This document shows positions 38,683 through 59,956 of a DNA stretch of 64,000 nucleotides, one piece after another (position 1 is the first letter of the stretch; the number at the start of each line of letters is the position of its first letter). The notes beneath the pieces were generated by a model, which searched no databases, was not told the origin of the DNA, and worked only from the letters and a program-made list of their open reading frames with translations. Location of the stretch: the sequence record QB031382.1; one strand, 5' to 3'. Source of the DNA: a phage. A program made the position numbers and the translations under genes.

Positions 38683-39267
38683 ATGAAAATACTTCAAGAG
38701 TTTAAGCTTTACCAGCCGGGATCTGGCGAATACCACACCAACAAAGGTACCAAGGAGCTGACTCCTCAGGAGGTTGAGGATTACACGGCATACACTGGAT
38801 ATTTTTTACGTAATGATGATGGTGATTGGTATGTGCAATCACGAACACTACGACAAGAAAATCCAGGCTGTATCTTCCTACTTGTTGACGAGAAGGGTAT
38901 TCTTAAGACATCTACAGAAGAACCTGATGCCTTGTGGCCTGCTCCAGGTCTTCGTGTGGTTATCGCCAAAAAAGAAGAGGTACCAGAAAACATTATGCTC
39001 CACCACGACGCTTTGCGTTTAGTTGGTGATGAATTTGTCACAGACAATGAATTCTTTGTTCAACAGGCAGAGGGTGTCATAGAGACAGAACTTGCTTGGG
39101 CTACTGCTAGAATTGGTGCCTATCAAGACATGATTGACCTTGAATACGATCTCACTGATGACCAAAAACGCAACATCAGAGATTTGAAAATGTACAGGGT
39201 AAAACTTCTTGAAATAGATACATCTAAAGCCCCTGACATTTTCTTCCCGGAACGACCTACCCTCTAA
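38683..39267 (+). CDS. Tail fibre assembly chaperone (Tfa-like)
   Basis: C-terminus DQKRNIRDLKMYRVKLLEIDTSKAPDIFFPERP matches the conserved Tfa C-terminal motif. Directly downstream of a fibre gene. Confidence 0.55.
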   Translation: MKILQEFKLYQPGSGEYHTNKGTKELTPQEVEDYTAYTGYFLRNDDGDWYVQSRTLRQENPGCIFLLVDEKGILKTSTEEPDALWPAPGLRVVIAKKEEVPENIMLHHDALRLVGDEFVTDNEFFVQQAEGVIETELAWATARIGAYQDMIDLEYDLTDDQKRNIRDLKMYRVKLLEIDTSKAPDIFFPERPTL

Positions 39268-39278
39268 GAGGAGGTGTT

Positions 39279-39593
39279 GTGGAGTTGGATTTGGCGGCAT
39301 TGTACGGTATCTGCATGGGTACCGTTGTCCCGATCTGTGTATGGGCTTTCAACCAGTGGCACACCAAATGGAAAGGCATTTCCAAGAGGCTGGATGAGCT
39401 GGAGAAAGACCTCATTTTAGTGAAAAATAGCATGGTTACAAAAGATAGACTTGATTCCATTATTGAGACCCGGTTAAGTAAGCTAGAGGCCGATATTAAC
39501 GACCTTAAGCAAGATGTCAGGACAGATGTCTCCGGTATCAGAGCCGATGTGCAAAAGATTTTACACATGCTTGTAGAGCACAGTAAAAGGTAA
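39279..39593 (+). CDS. Small membrane protein with N-terminal TM helix and coiled coil (holin, spanin-like or other)
   Basis: GTG start after AAGAGGAGG. LAALYGICMGTVVPICVWAF hydrophobic helix, then heptad-like coiled coil. Followed by a terminator. Confidence 0.45.
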   Translation: MELDLAALYGICMGTVVPICVWAFNQWHTKWKGISKRLDELEKDLILVKNSMVTKDRLDSIIETRLSKLEADINDLKQDVRTDVSGIRADVQKILHMLVEHSKR

Positions 39594-39603
39594 ACAAAGG
39601 TCA

Positions 39604-39623
39604 GAACGGCAAGGATGCCGTTC
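39604..39623 (+). terminator. Intrinsic terminator overlapping next promoter
   Basis: GAACGGCA / AGGA / TGCCGTTC followed by TTGCATTTTGTT. Confidence 0.5.
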
Positions 39624-39652
39624 TTGCATTTTGTTCTCTAAAGTGTTAAAAT
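39624..39652 (+). promoter_or_regulatory. Sigma70-like promoter
   Basis: TTGCAT, 17-nt spacer, TGTTAAAAT. Confidence 0.45.
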
Positions 39653-39683
39653 AGTCCTTAAGGAATTTTCTCAGGAGAACGTG

Positions 39684-40727
39684 ATGACTAAACCAGTTAT
39701 CCCTCTTGATATTTGGGCCAATCAGGATGTTGTGCTTGAAAATACAGGAGAGTTGAACAAATCTCAACCGAACAAAGAAGAGAGATTGAAAGGTTGGGAT
39801 ATGACACAAAGGATAGCATGTGAAGTTGTTAACTTTGAACTCCACATGCTCTCTGCGTGGCTAAAGCATTTAACAGAAGATGTTGTCCCAGGATGGGATA
39901 ATAGATTCTTAAGGGTCACTAATAATCTGGCAGACGTTCCAGACAAAGCTGCTGCACGTCAAGTTCTCAATGTATACTCGCCTGAAGAAATGGATGACCT
40001 TTATGTTGACAAGGCTGGAGACACAATGATCCAGACTCAAACTTTAGGTCTTCAAAGAATCGAGTTTGCATCCGCGTCAACAGATAGTGCGGCGATATAC
40101 ACCACTATAACTCCAGACAAGACGATGATGGATTTCTGGATTATGGACAACATCGGTGGTGCTGACGGCACAGACCTTGATGATCCCTCTCACCAAATAG
40201 ACGGTTTCCGTTGGAGATTTCAACCTTCTGGTGGGCAGCCTGTGTTTTCGGCTATGAAGCTCAATGCTATAACTGCCAACCGTGCAAGACTGGCTATCCA
40301 AGGAAATCTTGAATGCAATGATGCAAAAAGCTCCTCTGCAAATGCTAATGCGGTAACGATACCTAGAGCCACTGTTAATGGACAACAATCCTGCGGCAGC
40401 GCTCAAATAGATGGAAGAGTAGATTGTAACGATAAAACCGCCAGGGGTCAATATGCAACAGTTGGTGGAAGAAACGTGGTCCGCAGGGTAAATGGTAGTA
40501 GCGCAGACAGTAGTGGTAACCTTACTATTCCTATGCCTAGTAGGGGTGTTGAAGATGTAAGGATAGCAAACCGTTTCAGAACCACCTACAGAGAATCAAG
40601 AGTATACCCTGGGCATGTAATGTGCTCCGGCAATTACGCCTATAAACACCCGTATCAGGGCGACTATTGGACTGGAGCTATTCAAAAATTTGTAAACGGT
40701 CAATGGATCACCATATCTTATGCTTAA
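39684..40727 (+). CDS. Tail fibre protein (paralog B)
   Basis: ATG 39684 after AGGAG (GTG 39681 alternative). Shares the motif set with paralog A but diverges in the central and C-terminal regions. Confidence 0.65.
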   Translation: MTKPVIPLDIWANQDVVLENTGELNKSQPNKEERLKGWDMTQRIACEVVNFELHMLSAWLKHLTEDVVPGWDNRFLRVTNNLADVPDKAAARQVLNVYSPEEMDDLYVDKAGDTMIQTQTLGLQRIEFASASTDSAAIYTTITPDKTMMDFWIMDNIGGADGTDLDDPSHQIDGFRWRFQPSGGQPVFSAMKLNAITANRARLAIQGNLECNDAKSSSANANAVTIPRATVNGQQSCGSAQIDGRVDCNDKTARGQYATVGGRNVVRRVNGSSADSSGNLTIPMPSRGVEDVRIANRFRTTYRESRVYPGHVMCSGNYAYKHPYQGDYWTGAIQKFVNGQWITISYA

Positions 40728-40736
40728 AGAGGGTAA

Positions 40737-41003
40737 ATGAAATTAACTCAGTTTTTATGGGGACTGGTTGCAGCATCTGATGACCCTACAAAAGTGTCCC
40801 AATCTAAGCTATGGTCAAACATAGGCATGGCAGTGATGACTGGGGTGTTTATTCATATGGGGTACAATGATACGCTTCCTGAATGGTATGCGTGGATATA
40901 CGCACCTTCAGTAGCCTGCCCCCAGCTTATTAGCAAATTCATCTCGCTCCGGTGGGGTTGCCAGCACCCTGACCACGTTAAAAACGAAGAGCAAAAAGCT
41001 TAA
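40737..41003 (+). CDS. Small membrane protein (holin-like candidate)
   Basis: 88 aa with two or three hydrophobic segments and a charged C-terminus (HPDHVKNEEQKA). Confidence 0.4.
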   Translation: MKLTQFLWGLVAASDDPTKVSQSKLWSNIGMAVMTGVFIHMGYNDTLPEWYAWIYAPSVACPQLISKFISLRWGCQHPDHVKNEEQKA

Positions 41004-41012
41004 GGAGAAATC

Positions 41013-42758
41013 ATGGCGCAAGACATGACAAGCTTCGAGCAGGCGGTAGATCAAGTAATTGTTGATTCTGAACGTTTGCACTTGATTGTCAACGGTAACG
41101 CTGTGGATGAAGTTGTCGTAGAGGATGGGACCACCATCCCTACGGTACGAAAAGCCATGCTTGACACCCTTTATTTTAAAACGCCACCAATCCCTTGGGC
41201 GTATGGTGCATCCACAACAGTTTTTAACCAGTTATATGAGTTTAAAGGGGACACAGGCCCTCAGTGGTGGTACGCTCCCGCAGCATCAAAATCTAACCCG
41301 GTTAGAATGCCAGCAGATCCTTCACAATCTCCGAACTGGAGATTATATACCGATTCTGCAGTAATGGCAAAATACTACGCAAAACTTAACAGCCCAAGAT
41401 TCGAAGGTGACCCGCGAGTACCTACACCTCCAATGGACGATAAGTCCGAGTCTATAGCAAACACAGAGTTTGTTGTGGACTATGTGGATAGCATATTTAA
41501 AGCCATGGAGGGGATGAAAGTTACTGTAGGGTCTTTGGTGGTAAAAGGTCTTACAGAACTTGCTAACACCATAGTTGGTGGCACCCTTACCTTACATGGG
41601 CCTGTTAATGGAGCGGATTCTACTGCACGCTTCAGGAACCTAATCCTTACTGCAAATACTTCTACACTGACTTTTGCGTGGAGCGATCCTAAGCATGCAG
41701 ACTGGAGAAGCACAGAGCTGCAACCTCATGAAGTAGCCACCCACAGAGTTATAGCTGACACTATAACTTCTGGGAAACCAGTGGCTAATAACAACGATGT
41801 GCATTTTGATGGTCTAGGTAATAACTTTTTTGACTACGTGTACATTCGTGGTAATGCCATGAAGGCAGCAACCGAACCGACATTGCAGGTCGATGGGACC
41901 ACCAGGGTTAAGAACCTTGAGGTGACAGGCACCGTTACAGGAATAACCTACTCTGTAGATGGCACCATGATCTACCCTAGCTATATTGAAAGCACAGGAG
42001 ATGCACTGATCAATGGAGATTTAGAGGTTGGCGGATCTATAGTCATTCGTGGCACAGCATCTGTCCAGAACATATCTTTAAATACTCTGAGGGTGAATGA
42101 GCGTGCCACTTTTGAAGGAGAAGGGCTTACAGCCAACAAAGGTGCAATTACCGAGCTGACAACCACTACTCTAACTGCAACAACTGCAAACTCTGAAAAC
42201 TGCAACGTTACCCGCAACTTGCAGGTAAATGGAGATGTTAGTTTAAACGCAGCAGGTACGGGAACCACTTATCTTCACAACCTTGGAATATCCGGCACGG
42301 TGACTGGGTGGCTGCCAGACTTCTCTAATGTTAACTTTGTCTGCAACGGCATTAACTCCAGTGGTAAGATAACCACCTCTCAAGAAATTGAGGCTGGTAA
42401 AACCATTACTGCCCCTACTTTCCACGCAGGAAAGGTAGATTTTGATTTAGAGGAGGTTGACGCATCTAGTGGGACATGGACACCTAACGGGCAGGCCAGC
42501 ATGTATGTTGTCCACGCGAAAGGGGATTTTACAATAGGCCAATGGCCTGGAACATCGGCTGAAGATAAACCTTACCCGTTTACTGCAATCATCTATGTCA
42601 TTCAAGATGCTGTAGGTCACAACGTGACTTTGCACGATAAGTATGCTATCCTGTCGGCAACACCTGTTATTAACAACAAGGCTAACAGTGTTACCTTGCT
42701 GCAATTAACGTATTGTGGTGTTGGTGATATCGTAGACGTAGTAATTGCACAACGTTAA
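41013..42758 (+). CDS. Tail fibre protein (putative)
   Basis: 581 aa, Thr/Gly/Asn/Val-rich beta-type composition; lies in the fibre cluster. Confidence 0.45.
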   Translation: MAQDMTSFEQAVDQVIVDSERLHLIVNGNAVDEVVVEDGTTIPTVRKAMLDTLYFKTPPIPWAYGASTTVFNQLYEFKGDTGPQWWYAPAASKSNPVRMPADPSQSPNWRLYTDSAVMAKYYAKLNSPRFEGDPRVPTPPMDDKSESIANTEFVVDYVDSIFKAMEGMKVTVGSLVVKGLTELANTIVGGTLTLHGPVNGADSTARFRNLILTANTSTLTFAWSDPKHADWRSTELQPHEVATHRVIADTITSGKPVANNNDVHFDGLGNNFFDYVYIRGNAMKAATEPTLQVDGTTRVKNLEVTGTVTGITYSVDGTMIYPSYIESTGDALINGDLEVGGSIVIRGTASVQNISLNTLRVNERATFEGEGLTANKGAITELTTTTLTATTANSENCNVTRNLQVNGDVSLNAAGTGTTYLHNLGISGTVTGWLPDFSNVNFVCNGINSSGKITTSQEIEAGKTITAPTFHAGKVDFDLEEVDASSGTWTPNGQASMYVVHAKGDFTIGQWPGTSAEDKPYPFTAIIYVIQDAVGHNVTLHDKYAILSATPVINNKANSVTLLQLTYCGVGDIVDVVIAQR

Positions 42759-42766
42759 TATATCTA

Positions 42767-42793
42767 ACCGCTCCTGACGGGGCGGTTTTCTTA
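42767..42793 (+). terminator. Intrinsic terminator
   Basis: ACCGCTCC / TGAC / GGGGCGGT followed by TTTCTT. Confidence 0.45.
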
Positions 42794-42806
42794 TCTGGAG
42801 AACACA

Positions 42807-45800
42807 ATGCTTCCAATCCCTTTGCTAAAACTTGGTCGTCATTTCCTCGATAAGAGGGGTGGAATTAAGGAACTTGCTGTTCTGTCATACCCAATAGACA
42901 ACAGTGATGGCACAAGCACTACAGTACCCTATGTAAATAGCTTAGCTATACTTTTTGATGATGGTCAACTTAATATCACGGGCTATAACAGGTTCGGAGA
43001 GTGCCGTACTGGGGATCTTGACACGATAAACTATCCCAACGAGGCTGCCTGGAACGTTGATCATGTGTGGAGAGCAGACCGTGCGTTTGTAATCCGAACT
43101 TTTGATAATCAGTTTTTCTACATCGGCTGCACTGCAGGGCTTATTGGGTCTGATGCCGCAGGCGGTAATGATGTTTGTGTAAGAGAGTGGACACCTCTTC
43201 CTGAACAGATCGTTAAAGGGTTGCACCTTGACACCCACCCAGAGCGCCTTATTGAGGTGATGGGTGGTATTAACAACACTGTCTGGGTTATTGCAGAGGC
43301 AGAAGGCACTGGTATACTGAACCTGTACGGGTCTGGTAACAACACCTACGGATCTTTGCATGTAGATAAAAATCAGCATGCAACCCCTGTAAAGATCGGT
43401 GAGACATCGGAAAATCCTGAAACAGGCCCTTGGAAAAACCCAAGCATTAACTGCGAGGTGCATGACAACTCTGTTATTTTCGGCGGTCCTAGAGGTTTCT
43501 GGATTGCTGGATACGATTTTCTGAGAAACAACAGTAGAAACGACCTTGTTTGGCCTCCTGTGCAGATTACTCGTAACGATTTGAGGGGCATTCCTGCAGA
43601 TGAGGAGTGGAAAGGGTTTATGTGCGGTCCTAACGGGGCAATAATTGCCACGCAGAGGATGCACACACCCAATGACCAGCAGCTTGTTAACGTATTCTAC
43701 GGGCAAAACGTCTGGGGAGATGACACATGGCGTTCCTTAAATATCACCTACACCCATGAGGTGATAATGGCTCGTGGATACGGCACAAGTGGCATTTTCT
43801 TCAATAATGGCACTAAGCAGTATCGTGGATTCTCTCGCAACTTGTGTAATGATATTGGCGCACAATCTGCAAACAATAGCCCTAGGGCCAATTTTATCCA
43901 CTATCAAGCTCTTGCCACAGCCAAATACGTTGAGCAACGCCTCCCAGTTAGCTGGACAGAGAGTGTTTATTTCCAAGGCATCCACAGGGAAGGTTTCTTA
44001 GGAACCTTTACTGTTGTTAATGGTAAACTTTGGTGGTCAGGCATCCCAAGGGGAAATTTTGCAGGATCTAATAACCTGTTTGGCGGCAGACTTAATAGCC
44101 AAGGGTTCACAGAGGTCCCCGAGAATTGGTATAAAAATGTCCCAGTAGACAGTTGGGGTGTTGAGGATATTTTCGACGTTAACGGTGTTAGCAGCGTTAG
44201 CAATATTTACATTGGTGATACGGTCAAGATGAAATTGAAGCCTCAGCCAGAAGGGGCCACGTTCATTATTGACAAGATTGAACTGGTAAATGCTGCAGGT
44301 ACGGTTGTTACAGATGCAAATTACCAATTCTCTACCAACTGGAACCACGGCGGGGCCAACGAAGTTATTGTTACCCAGTATAACAGGAATGTTAACAGGC
44401 GTGGCCTGTACTCTGTAAAAATAACCTATCATGACAAACATGGCACAGGAAGAACCCACACAACAAGGAATTTGAACTGGAACACTATCGTCCCAGCGTA
44501 TCCGTCTGATGGTAAATGGCATACTGTAGGTAGAAACAAACAGTTCCATGTTAACGACACTGTATACTTTGGACTAAATGCGGCCCAGCCTGCAGTAGAA
44601 GGGGATACATCGTATATGGTCAGACTCCATAGAATGGATGCTGGATCAGTAACTTATGATGTTACCCAAGAGATTTATAATCAGCGACGAAATACCTATG
44701 ATAACTTGGTGCAGACACAGGCCCTATGGGAGTTCAACCCAAACGGAAGGGGTGGTAAAATGTTGCAGGTCAACGAACAAAACGGGACATCGTTGACTGT
44801 TCACGAACACCCAAACCCTTGGCCTGATCCTGGGAAACCGAATTCAGGTGCTCGTACACTAAAAATTGTCAGCCATGACGTAGGATATTTCGGAATACGT
44901 TGGGAAGCCACAGTAAGATATGCCGACGGGACAACAAACAATATTGGGATTACCCTTGGCGGCACCAGTGAGGATAACTCACTGAAAATTGCCTACACTC
45001 CTAGAGGTATTTCTATTGATAATATGGATGTTGTTCGCAATGGTTACGGCGATGTGAATGTCAAAGTTACTCTTGGCGAGCACCTTGGTGGGGAAAGGAT
45101 TATCATGTATGCTTTTGATCATGATCCGCGCACCAATGGAACTTATGCAAATCAGGCATGGAGTTACCTAATAAATGCACCTGAGCCGAATACTAAAGAG
45201 TTCTACTATGGTATGAAGCGAGATGTGTGCAAGAAAACAGGAACACATGACTGGATTGCTATCTGCGTTAAAGATGAGCGCACAGCTTGGGATGAGCCTG
45301 TTAACAGATGGTTCATAGGTATTCCTACCAGAAGTGATAAGTATGTCGCAGAGTATATTGTATGCATGGGCGGTACCAACCTGAACATGTGTTGGAACGA
45401 AGATGTAAACAAATACTCTACTTATGACTATATGAGGGATTATGCTTGTAATCTGTGGTTTAGCCAAACTACAGGTTACCCTCCGCGTCAGGCGAGAGTA
45501 AATCCTGCAATCTTCACAGATACGCAGGTTTTCTTGACAAAACAGGCTAACGAGGTTCAGACCTTTAAGAACAAATACGACCCTAACAAGTGGTTCTACA
45601 ACTGTTCCGGAGCAATATTCTGGGGACCTGCTGAACTGCCTGATACAGGTTCTTGCTTAGGGGCTGCAACCTATGGCAGTGACTATATTATGGGTCAGGT
45701 CAAGAAGTACAAGATAATTCCTGGACCTGCAATTCTAGGTAATGCTGTTGACCCGTACATAAATTTCGCAGCTATACATGCTAATATGGATGGAGGGAGA

Positions 45801-48443: not shown

Positions 48444-48476
48444 AATAAAAAGGGGCCAAACGGCCCCTTTCTTTTT
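48444..48476. terminator. Bidirectional intrinsic terminator at convergent junction
   Basis: AGGGGCC / AAAC / GGCCCCT flanked by an A-run upstream and T-run downstream. Confidence 0.65.
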
Positions 48477-59025: not shown

Positions 59026-59406
59026 ATGGCTAAAGTAGGTAAGCGGGGAAACTACCTGGTGGTATTGACAGAGGAGCCGGAGAAGGAGTACGAATGCAGC
59101 TCCACCTGCGTGATCGATATCCGAGAAAAAGATGTAGATGAAATCTGGTTTAAAATACTGGACGCTTGCGACAGTAGTGATTATTTCTTCATCTATGTCA
59201 ACGATAAAGCTGGGTTCTTCCATGACGATGGAGAGTTACCGTATGAAATCTATGAACTTGTAGAGGCTTGCCATCGTGGAGATGCGGAGTTGTTTGGTCT
59301 ACGGCTGAAAAGCGGTAAATTTTTCTACCAAGATGAGTGCATGAATCTTCACAACTTCGTAGAGGGGACTTGCAATGATGGAGAGATTTTGGCACACTAC
59401 GACTAA
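59026..59406 (+). CDS. Hypothetical acidic protein
   Basis: 126 aa; RBS GAGGAGG. Confidence 0.45.
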   Translation: MAKVGKRGNYLVVLTEEPEKEYECSSTCVIDIREKDVDEIWFKILDACDSSDYFFIYVNDKAGFFHDDGELPYEIYELVEACHRGDAELFGLRLKSGKFFYQDECMNLHNFVEGTCNDGEILAHYD

Positions 59407-59455: not shown

Positions 59456-59956
59456 GTGAAAATTAAGATCTTTGCTATTATTTTGAGCGCATTTTTATCG
59501 CTGCCTGTTGTTGCAGCACCAAAACAAAAAGTATATCACACCTGCAAGCCATCGGATACTAAGGAAAACATTCTAGCATGTAATATCTACAGGGAGGCTA
59601 GAGGGGATGGCACGATGGGTATGCTGGCATCAGGGTTTGCCACACTAAACAGGAAATCTCACCCCAAATACCCGGACACCATAAGAAAGATTGTCTACCA
59701 ACCTAACCAGTTTTCGTGGACAAACCACGGCAAAACTTTTAAGGTGACAGAAAAAGATTCATGGGATCACGCTAAAAGTCTTGCAAAGATGCTTCTAAAG
59801 GTCTATAATAACAACCATGTTGCATACATGGCTATGGATATAACAGGTGGAGCAACACACTATCATACAACAAAAGTACGACCGAAATGGGCAAAAAAGA
59901 TGCAGAGGACAGCTCAATTCGGGAGTCATATCTACTACAAGGAGCGCAATAAATGA
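59456..59956 (+). CDS. Secreted cell-wall hydrolase (SleB/CwlJ Hydrolase_2-like), candidate endolysin
   Basis: GTG start after GGAG. N-terminal signal-peptide-like MKIKIFAIILSAFLSLPVVAAP. Domain motifs NIYREARGDG ... GGATHYHT ... RPKWA. Confidence 0.6.
   Translation: MKIKIFAIILSAFLSLPVVAAPKQKVYHTCKPSDTKENILACNIYREARGDGTMGMLASGFATLNRKSHPKYPDTIRKIVYQPNQFSWTNHGKTFKVTEKDSWDHAKSLAKMLLKVYNNNHVAYMAMDITGGATHYHTTKVRPKWAKKMQRTAQFGSHIYYKERNK

Follow-up and report, generated by a model that had tools for sequence, protein, structure and literature searches.

Several described systems can be set beside a small lysis membrane protein of a phage. Class II holins such as S68 of phage 21 (the lambdoid S21 type) are small proteins with two transmembrane domains (TMDs), cytoplasmic termini and a charged tail, and class I holins such as lambda S105 have three TMDs with the N-terminus out and the C-terminus in (N-out/C-in). 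The holin genes t of T4 and 17.5 of T7 lie beside tail-fibre genes; of their products, T7 gp17.5 has a single TMD, as does T4 T, which in addition has a large periplasmic domain. P2 LysA, a putative antiholin encoded between the endolysin K and LysB/LysC, and Mu gp25 releasin (DUF2730), a small lysis-associated inner-membrane protein, complete the set used here. The present work deals with an open reading frame (ORF) of 88 amino acids (aa) at 40737..41003 on the plus strand of a stretch of phage DNA of 64,000 nucleotides (nt; sequence record QB031382.1), which as a whole is called the window. Like T4 t and T7 17.5, this gene lies apart from the endolysin gene and adjoins tail-fibre genes, but its product is unrelated to T4 T and T7 gp17.5 in sequence and in topology. 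It is the leading candidate for the holin of rV5-like phages. That the protein has a role in lysis of one kind or another is likely, and that it is the holin-type lysis membrane protein of the phage we judge to be an even call.

The phage is an rV5-like myovirus (Vequintavirus), since positions 39000-43000 of the window are 98% identical to DNA of Escherichia phage FV3 and the region matches 118 phage records at 90-99% DNA identity. The ORF proved to be a real gene with exact coordinates, conserved across phage records. Its product is identical in aa sequence to FV3_00029, whose annotation reads "membrane protein, similar to rV5 hypothetical protein", and to rV5 gp29 (ABI79100.1), and one synonymous and no non-synonymous codon change separates the gene from that of FV3. 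An earlier note on this DNA had assumed dispersed lysis genes, in agreement with the literature on rV5-like phages, where these genes are scattered and no holin has been established. The endolysin of FV3 and rV5 (FV3_00082 = rV5 gp89), encoded outside the window, is lambda-R-like and has no signal or signal-anchor-release (SAR) sequence, so that a holin is needed in this group. The Rz/Rz1 spanins of FV3 are encoded beside the large terminase gene, an arrangement shared with T7.

The position of homologous genes in the lysis cassettes of unrelated phages carries the argument. In Ralstonia phage RS138 a late activator (Mor) is followed by an endolysin (ORF26), the homologue (ORF27) and an Rz-like spanin (ORF28, in which an ORF for a lipoprotein is embedded), and no holin is annotated anywhere in the genome. 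The order in Pseudomonas phage Bise is Mor, M15 peptidase, homologue, Rz in which Rz1 is embedded, and a coiled-coil protein that has a TMD at its N-terminus, and in the 93 kb Pseudomonas phage Dolphis, which is not Mu-like, it is GH19 endolysin, homologue, i-spanin, o-spanin. A locus scan of 185,579 species genomes with a profile from a five-sequence alignment yielded 16 prophage loci in Burkholderiaceae, Cupriavidus, Pandoraea, Jeongeupia, Neisseriaceae and Moraxella, and a scan of IMG/VR yielded 27 loci, in which endolysin neighbours were judged by reading the ORF listings. An endolysin adjoins the homologue upstream in 12 of the 16 prophage loci and 23 of the 27 IMG/VR loci; mostly it overlaps the start codon of the homologue, and in two loci (L021 and L048) some 190 nt separate its end from the homologue. 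The product of the next ORF in most endolysin-adjacent loci begins with a TMD, as i-spanins typically do. When upstream neighbours from annotated phages and prophages were scanned against PHROGs, all 14 matched endolysin or amidase families, as did all seven neighbours tested from IMG/VR and Dolphis. Seven such families (2649/465, 873, 822, 435, 90, 894 and 181) were found beside the homologue, and a constant place of the gene with a changing family of endolysin is the pattern expected of a component of a lysis cassette. None of the adjoining endolysins that were read has an obvious N-terminal signal or SAR sequence. The family, phrog_1322, would be best described as an unrecognised lysis-cassette family. 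The order endolysin, homologue, spanin thus lends support to the holin-like small membrane protein proposed in the earlier note as a candidate function, and this position supports the term "lysis membrane protein" more firmly than the term "holin".

The link between the 88-aa protein and the cassette proteins rests on profile comparisons. The protein matches phrog_1322 ("membrane protein") with E 2.7e-32, residues 1-87 aligning to profile positions 1-86 of 87. A profile of close relatives was searched against 1.84 billion representatives and found 72 cluster representatives at E<1e-3, and all 70 diverse relatives that were aligned match phrog_1322. With hhalign the rV5-like group was compared to the Mu-like cassette homologues alone (probability 97.3%, E 2.5e-11) and to the broader diverse relatives (probability 99.5%, E 2.4e-23), and tblastn from a prophage member reached Seunavirus-type phages at E 2e-5. 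Homology of the rV5-like group with the lysis-cassette proteins is therefore well supported. The family has a common layout of a short N-terminal segment, a motif running into the first TMD, G(R/K)xSHTK(F/L)W(S/A)N, a short acidic loop, a second TMD ending in SKF(L/I)xLK(Y/W)G, and a charged tail that varies in length. In the 70 sequences the residues S21, K24 and W26 of the 88-aa protein are nearly invariant.

Homologues are encoded in 374 phage records. In Vequintavirus, Seunavirus, Certrevirus, Justusliebigvirus and Plateaulakevirus the gene is present, always in the structural module. At the loci L022, L023, L057 and L058, which come from T4-like Busanvirus and Menderavirus phages and related metagenome contigs, a three-TMD form is always a lone gene on the opposite strand, with the DNA polymerase gene on one side and dUTPase/regA/clamp-loader genes on the other. 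Stenotrophomonas phage Marzo also has a three-TMD member, annotated merely as putative membrane protein; the announcement of its genome states that no holin or endolysin was identifiable. No member carries the name "holin" in the protein-cluster look-up sources or in the annotated records among the phage search matches, and in some phi92-like records the homologue bears the label "structural protein". A paper of 2025 on the phi92-like phage BME3 lists two candidates for a "topology II holin", one of 61 and one of 81 residues, neither of them named. As the phi92-like homologue in phage muut has 81 aa, the larger candidate may be the same gene.

The features of the 88-aa ORF are the following:

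40737..41003, plus strand: the 88-aa ORF, with ATG start and TAA stop; candidate holin-type lysis membrane protein
40743..40775, plus strand: short N-terminal hydrophobic/amphipathic helix, aa 3-13, LTQFLWGLVAA (Kyte-Doolittle profile; AlphaFold helix 3-11)
40791..40820, plus strand: family signature before and into TMD1, KVSQSKLWSN, predicted cytoplasmic or interfacial (alignments)
40809..40865, plus strand: predicted TMD1, aa 25-43, LWSNIGMAVMTGVFIHMGY (hydropathy, AlphaFold, charge)
40866..40883, plus strand: short loop of acidic character, aa 44-49 (NDTLPE), lacking K/R; a periplasmic position is predicted from the loop charge of the family
40884..40949, plus strand: predicted TMD2, aa 50-71+, with a kink at C61-P62, then the conserved interfacial SKFIxLRWG
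40950..41000, plus strand: hydrophilic charged C-terminal tail, aa 72-88, predicted cytoplasmic; 6-78 aa long in relatives

The protein consists of two TMD-like helices and a short N-terminal helix, which with 11 residues is too short for a TMD. AlphaFold2, run on the 70-sequence alignment, gave helices at 3-11, 22-43 and 49-60 plus 62-73 and a disordered tail, with a mean predicted local distance difference test score (pLDDT) of 73.5. The hydrophobic segments and charged C-terminus described in the earlier note were confirmed by hydropathy (aa 3-13, 25-43 and 50-71), by this model and by the composition of the tail, whose 17 residues include 3 K/R, 2 H and 3 D/E and are charged with a net charge of zero. 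Predicted TMD1 contains many G/S/T/N residues and is of weak hydrophobicity; the Kyte-Doolittle maximum over 19 residues is 1.05 for aa 25-43 and about 1.0 for aa 50-71. Measured against what is usual for small holins, about 60-150 aa with at least one TMD, the protein has 88 aa and two helices of TMD length with a hydrophobicity below the classical thresholds, its relatives being more hydrophobic. In the family the median number of K/R is 3 before TMD1, 0 in the loop (net charge -1) and 4 after TMD2, so that a charged hydrophilic tail of the holin type is present. From this distribution the positive-inside rule predicts a topology N-in, loop-out, C-in with a cytoplasmic tail. Strongly hydrophobic additional N-terminal TMDs occur in 12 of 58 relatives, for which a lambda-S-like, N-out/C-in three-TMD form is predicted.

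Other readings of the N-terminus were considered. A cleavage between MKLTQFLWGLVAA and SDD would superficially fit the n-h-c pattern of a signal peptide with an A-x-A site, with an h-region of merely 8-11 residues. Close relatives have a proline at position +1 of the apparent site (LVAAPDD), which blocks cleavage by signal peptidase I, and distant relatives have no hydrophobic stretch in this segment. At the level of the family the signal peptide was rejected on these three grounds. The alignments contain no cysteine lipobox in the protein or its relatives. A dual-start motif is not present either: the N-terminus reads MKLTQF and the next methionine is M31, and relatives begin MFKKIK with no second start. 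Searching BFVD for folds similar to the AlphaFold model was uninformative, the model being a two-helix hairpin; only uncharacterised family members scored, and hits named "Holin" had E > 0.7.

Compared to class II holins the 88-aa protein shares the small size, two predicted TMDs, predicted cytoplasmic termini, a charged tail and the placement of its gene in a putatively late operon. It differs from them in the lack of Pfam holin similarity and of a dual start and in the weak hydrophobicity of both TMDs. The signature SHTK(F/L)W, conserved and predicted to be cytoplasmic, has no known counterpart. Where the earlier note had spoken of class II/III holins, the class II part agrees with the two predicted TMDs and the predicted N-in/C-in topology, and the class III part does not fit two helices and a tail of 17 residues. 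Class I holins are approached by the 12 three-TMD relatives, which also have long and highly charged C-tails; relatives' tails are longer and more highly charged than that of the 88-aa protein, which itself lacks the first TMD and has no detected sequence similarity to class I. Homologues in Mu-like phages and Dolphis share the slot of P2 LysA, which is larger than the phrog_1322 proteins and has more TMDs. Mu gp25 releasin resembles in architecture the proteins which accompany the homologue in Mu-like cassettes, and also the 104-aa neighbour described below, rather than the 88-aa protein with its two TMDs and no cytoplasmic coiled-coil domain.

The sole Pfam family with any similarity is DUF2644 (PF10841), itself of no known function. 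Six of the 70 relatives match it (best E 2e-4), as do two of 14 Mu-like cassette homologues at E 0.054, and metagenome records name DUF2644 for a close relative and for a member of the 90%-identity cluster of the 88-aa protein. Membership was rejected, as none of 14 close relatives including the 88-aa protein matches at E up to 10 and the hits of the relatives are below threshold, and DUF2644 is kept as no more than a weak remote link. No holin family is among the recurrent Pfam hits of the 70 relatives, and no NCBIfam match was found for the 88-aa protein.

The gene lies in a tightly packed part of the structural operon, with these neighbours:

39279..39593, plus strand: 104-aa protein, rV5 gp31, phrog_5345, which has a TMD at its N-terminus as well as a coiled coil; possible partner
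39603..39624, plus strand: terminator-like hairpin upstream of the unit of fibre B, 88-aa gene and fibre gp28 (consensus scan)
39681..40727, plus strand: tail-fibre paralogue B, FV3_00030, phrog_4465, directly upstream of the 88-aa gene
40728..40733, plus strand: Shine-Dalgarno-like AGAGGG, 3 nt before the ATG (read off the sequence)
41013..42758, plus strand: tail-fibre gene, FV3_00028 (gp28), phrog_4549, directly downstream of the 88-aa gene
42766..42787, plus strand: terminator-like hairpin closing the same unit (consensus scan)

The spacing is 9 nt both from the stop of the upstream fibre gene (40727) and to the start of the next one (41013). Translational coupling with the upstream fibre gene is likely, because the AGAGGG directly follows its TAA, and the AAGGAG of the downstream fibre gene overlaps the stop codon of the 88-aa ORF. 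The rV5 transcription unit comprises genes 27-81, and from the position in this structural operon together with the close spacing to both neighbours late expression would be expected. Hairpins at 39603..39624, 42766..42787 and 48449..48470 (plus strand) have 9-bp GC-rich stems and T-rich tracts and stand exactly at gene ends, where the first two would mark off fibre B, the 88-aa gene and fibre gp28 as a short unit; the number of sites in the promoter and terminator consensus scan was not above that expected for shuffled sequence.

The proposed course of events starts with late synthesis of the 88-aa protein, whose gene would be co-transcribed with the tail-fibre genes and probably coupled to them in translation. 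The protein would insert into the inner membrane as a two-helix hairpin, the N-terminus, the SxxKLW segment and the C-tail being cytoplasmic and the acidic loop periplasmic. After harmless accumulation a timed oligomerisation into lesions would collapse the membrane potential. These lesions, if large enough, would admit the signal-less lambda-R-like endolysin to the cell wall, and the Rz/Rz1 spanins would then disrupt the outer membrane.

A number of points weigh against assigning the protein as a holin. Both helices are weakly hydrophobic, with all segments below the classical cut-off of 1.6, which explains why neither TMHMM nor Phobius called a TMD for rV5 gp29 in the table of the rV5 authors; for PVP-SE1 gp42 Octopus and Phobius call one TMD. 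The 88-aa protein and 13 close relatives have no Pfam match, holin families included, at E up to 10, and our literature search found no experimental work on any member of phrog_1322. The conservation is unusual for a holin, at least 95% aa identity being kept across most Vequintavirus records (115 phage records reach this level, with regional DNA mostly 90-95% identical). In this genome the gene is unlinked to any lysis gene, endolysin and spanins being encoded tens of kb away; the linkage exists in Mu-like phages and prophages and in Dolphis. The homologue heads the late operon with no adjacent endolysin in three Moraxella/Faucicola prophage loci. Dolphis and the majority of the Mu-like cassettes also encode another small protein, of one TMD plus a coiled coil, which could be the real holin. 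Finally, the slot between endolysin and spanin also holds the putative antiholin LysA in P2.

Other holin candidates have been named for rV5-like phages or can be found in their genomes. Kropinski et al. (2013) reported no holin homologue in rV5 and nominated gp129, of 78 aa and two TMDs. Its homologue FV3_00121 (L027 1517..1753, outside the window) has 78 aa with two very hydrophobic TMDs and a basic tail. Proteins of this type are found only in Vequintavirus (116 records), are 53-59% identical across most of the genus, and are encoded in one transcription unit with nucleotide-metabolism genes within a block of small genes. A hydropathy census of the FV3 ORFs showed many small membrane proteins in small, mostly unannotated gene blocks outside the structural module. 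FV3_00084 (68 aa), encoded near the endolysin, was rejected as a rival since its single N-terminal signal-like TMD followed by a soluble domain is not holin-like. This protein is labelled "similar to rV5 putative membrane protein" and has cysteine in its soluble domain; an HNH endonuclease gene lies between it and the endolysin gene (L003 27470..28909, FV3_00082 to FV3_00084, outside the window).

The gene at 59456, taken in the earlier note as the only clear lysin candidate, proved to encode a muralytic enzyme, but the recognised endolysin of this group is that encoded outside the window. The product of 59456..59956 (plus strand) is a SleB-like hydrolase (PF07486, E 2.1e-19) with a strongly hydrophobic N-terminal signal-like segment, MKIKIFAIILSAFLSLPVVAAP, which has a Kyte-Doolittle value of 2.5 and a proline directly after its A-A. 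It is a second muralytic enzyme, probably exported, besides the soluble lambda-R-like endolysin. The stop of this gene overlaps the start of rIIA (59953). FV3_00003 (59026..59406 of the window), encoded directly upstream, was rejected as a holin as it has no hydrophobic segment.

That the 88-aa protein is instead an antiholin or lysis-timing regulator of the P2 LysA type, modulating gp129 (FV3_00121), a gp31-type protein or an unrecognised gene as the actual holin, is somewhat improbable. The homologues occupy the place between endolysin and spanin which in P2 is that of lysA. A further small TMD/coiled-coil protein is present in most Mu-like cassettes, Dolphis has besides the homologue a "hol-like" phrog_2658 protein upstream of the endolysin, and the high sequence conservation suggests specific protein-protein contacts. 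The rV5 holin proposed by Kropinski et al. is gp129, with two strongly hydrophobic TMDs and a basic C-terminus, but gp129 is confined to Vequintavirus and shares a transcription unit with nucleotide-metabolism genes, whereas the 88-aa family occurs in all related genera, each of which would need a holin. A crude census of L011, L052 and the Moraxella loci L009 and L018 found no further TMD protein besides the spanin, the RS138 genome is without an annotated holin, and the three-TMD variants look like class I holins. A very improbable variant is that of a pinholin-like depolariser which serves the secreted SleB-like hydrolase, with TMD1 acting like the SAR-type TMD1 of S21. The weakly hydrophobic, G/S/T/N-rich TMD1, the signal-like N-terminus of the hydrolase and the predicted two-TMD N-in/C-in arrangement, which matches that of S21 68, are in accordance with this idea. 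The endolysins beside the homologues would, however, require a hole big enough for a folded enzyme, since those that were read lack an obvious signal or SAR sequence. Partner endolysins of phrog_1322 are thus soluble, unlike those of class II pinholins, and pinholes would not be sufficient; the rV5-type endolysin is soluble as well, and the N-terminal segment of the SleB-like enzyme is strongly hydrophobic, unlike SAR domains.

A function outside lysis, tied to the tail-fibre module, is unlikely. Such a protein could help in fibre assembly or act in superinfection exclusion or receptor masking in the manner of Cor/Llp. It would explain why the gene is always among baseplate and tail-fibre genes in the five genera, and the trio formed with two other membrane proteins beside the tail-fibre assembly gene in PVP-SE1 and CR8; the PHROGs category of phrog_1322, "moron, auxiliary metabolic gene and host takeover", and the label "structural protein" in phi92-like records point in the same direction. 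Homologues elsewhere, however, stand in lysis cassettes or alone and not beside fibres. The protein does not track receptor specificity, as it is nearly invariant in Vequintavirus and neighbours differing fibre or tailspike genes across the genera, and the family has neither a lipobox nor a signal peptide. In the rV5 paper the gene 29 product has no mass-spectrometry evidence in virions. The homologue is not modelled in the phi92 virion, and phi92 gp144 is not mentioned in the cryo-EM paper of 2026. A holin-type lysis protein is the reading we prefer for the 88-aa gene.

The gp31-type gene upstream of fibre B deserves separate consideration. According to the rV5 paper gp31 has one TMD. The architecture of the 104-aa protein is like that of Mu gp25 releasin and XhlA-type lysis proteins, with a weak XhlA hit at E 0.014. 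Homology to the coiled-coil proteins with N-terminal TMD of Mu-like cassettes or to DUF2730 was rejected (BLASTP E 0.10, hhalign 7.9%), and neither the 104-aa protein nor those proteins match DUF2730 in Pfam. In Dolphis and in the majority of the Mu-like cassettes the homologue is found together with coiled-coil partners that are analogous but non-homologous. A two-component lysis trigger, with phrog_1322 as one half and a single-TMD coiled-coil protein as the other (here the 88-aa and 104-aa genes), is put forward tentatively and is quite unlikely to hold as stated. In Seunavirus and Certrevirus three genes for membrane proteins follow one another within the tail-fibre module: in PVP-SE1 and CR8 the tail-fibre assembly gene is followed by adjacent genes for a gp31-type protein, a 4-TMD protein and the homologue of the 88-aa protein, so that the gp31-type gene is one gene away from the homologue. 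The polytopic protein, of 152-157 aa (L026 4500..4973, PVP-SE1 gp43, for which 4 TMDs are annotated; L028 4519..4977, CR8 gp031), sits where the window has tail-fibre paralogue B.

A side observation concerns about 15-21 GenBank records, MG0656xx, which are named "Campylobacter phage" with Campylobacter jejuni as host and carry the E. coli rV5-like region. These records, several of which are unannotated, encode the 88-aa protein at 99-100% identity, and their host labels look doubtful.

Collections for phage therapy and biocontrol commonly include rV5-like and phi92-like myoviruses, whose holin has never been pinned down. Placement in a family of cassette proteins provides a specific candidate and suggests that phrog_1322, currently listed under "membrane protein/moron", is a lysis family. 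If this is confirmed, lysis-gene annotation would improve for the several hundred phage genomes which carry the family, and the described holins would be joined by a family whose hydrophobicity is unusually weak and which has a conserved cytoplasmic motif. Should the two-component trigger prove true, it would explain the "missing holins" in no fewer than four unrelated groups of phages, namely the rV5/phi92-like, the T4-like Menderavirus/Busanvirus, the Mu-like transposable and the Dolphis-like phages, and the location of the pair inside the tail-fibre operon would tie the timing of lysis to fibre production in rV5-like phages.

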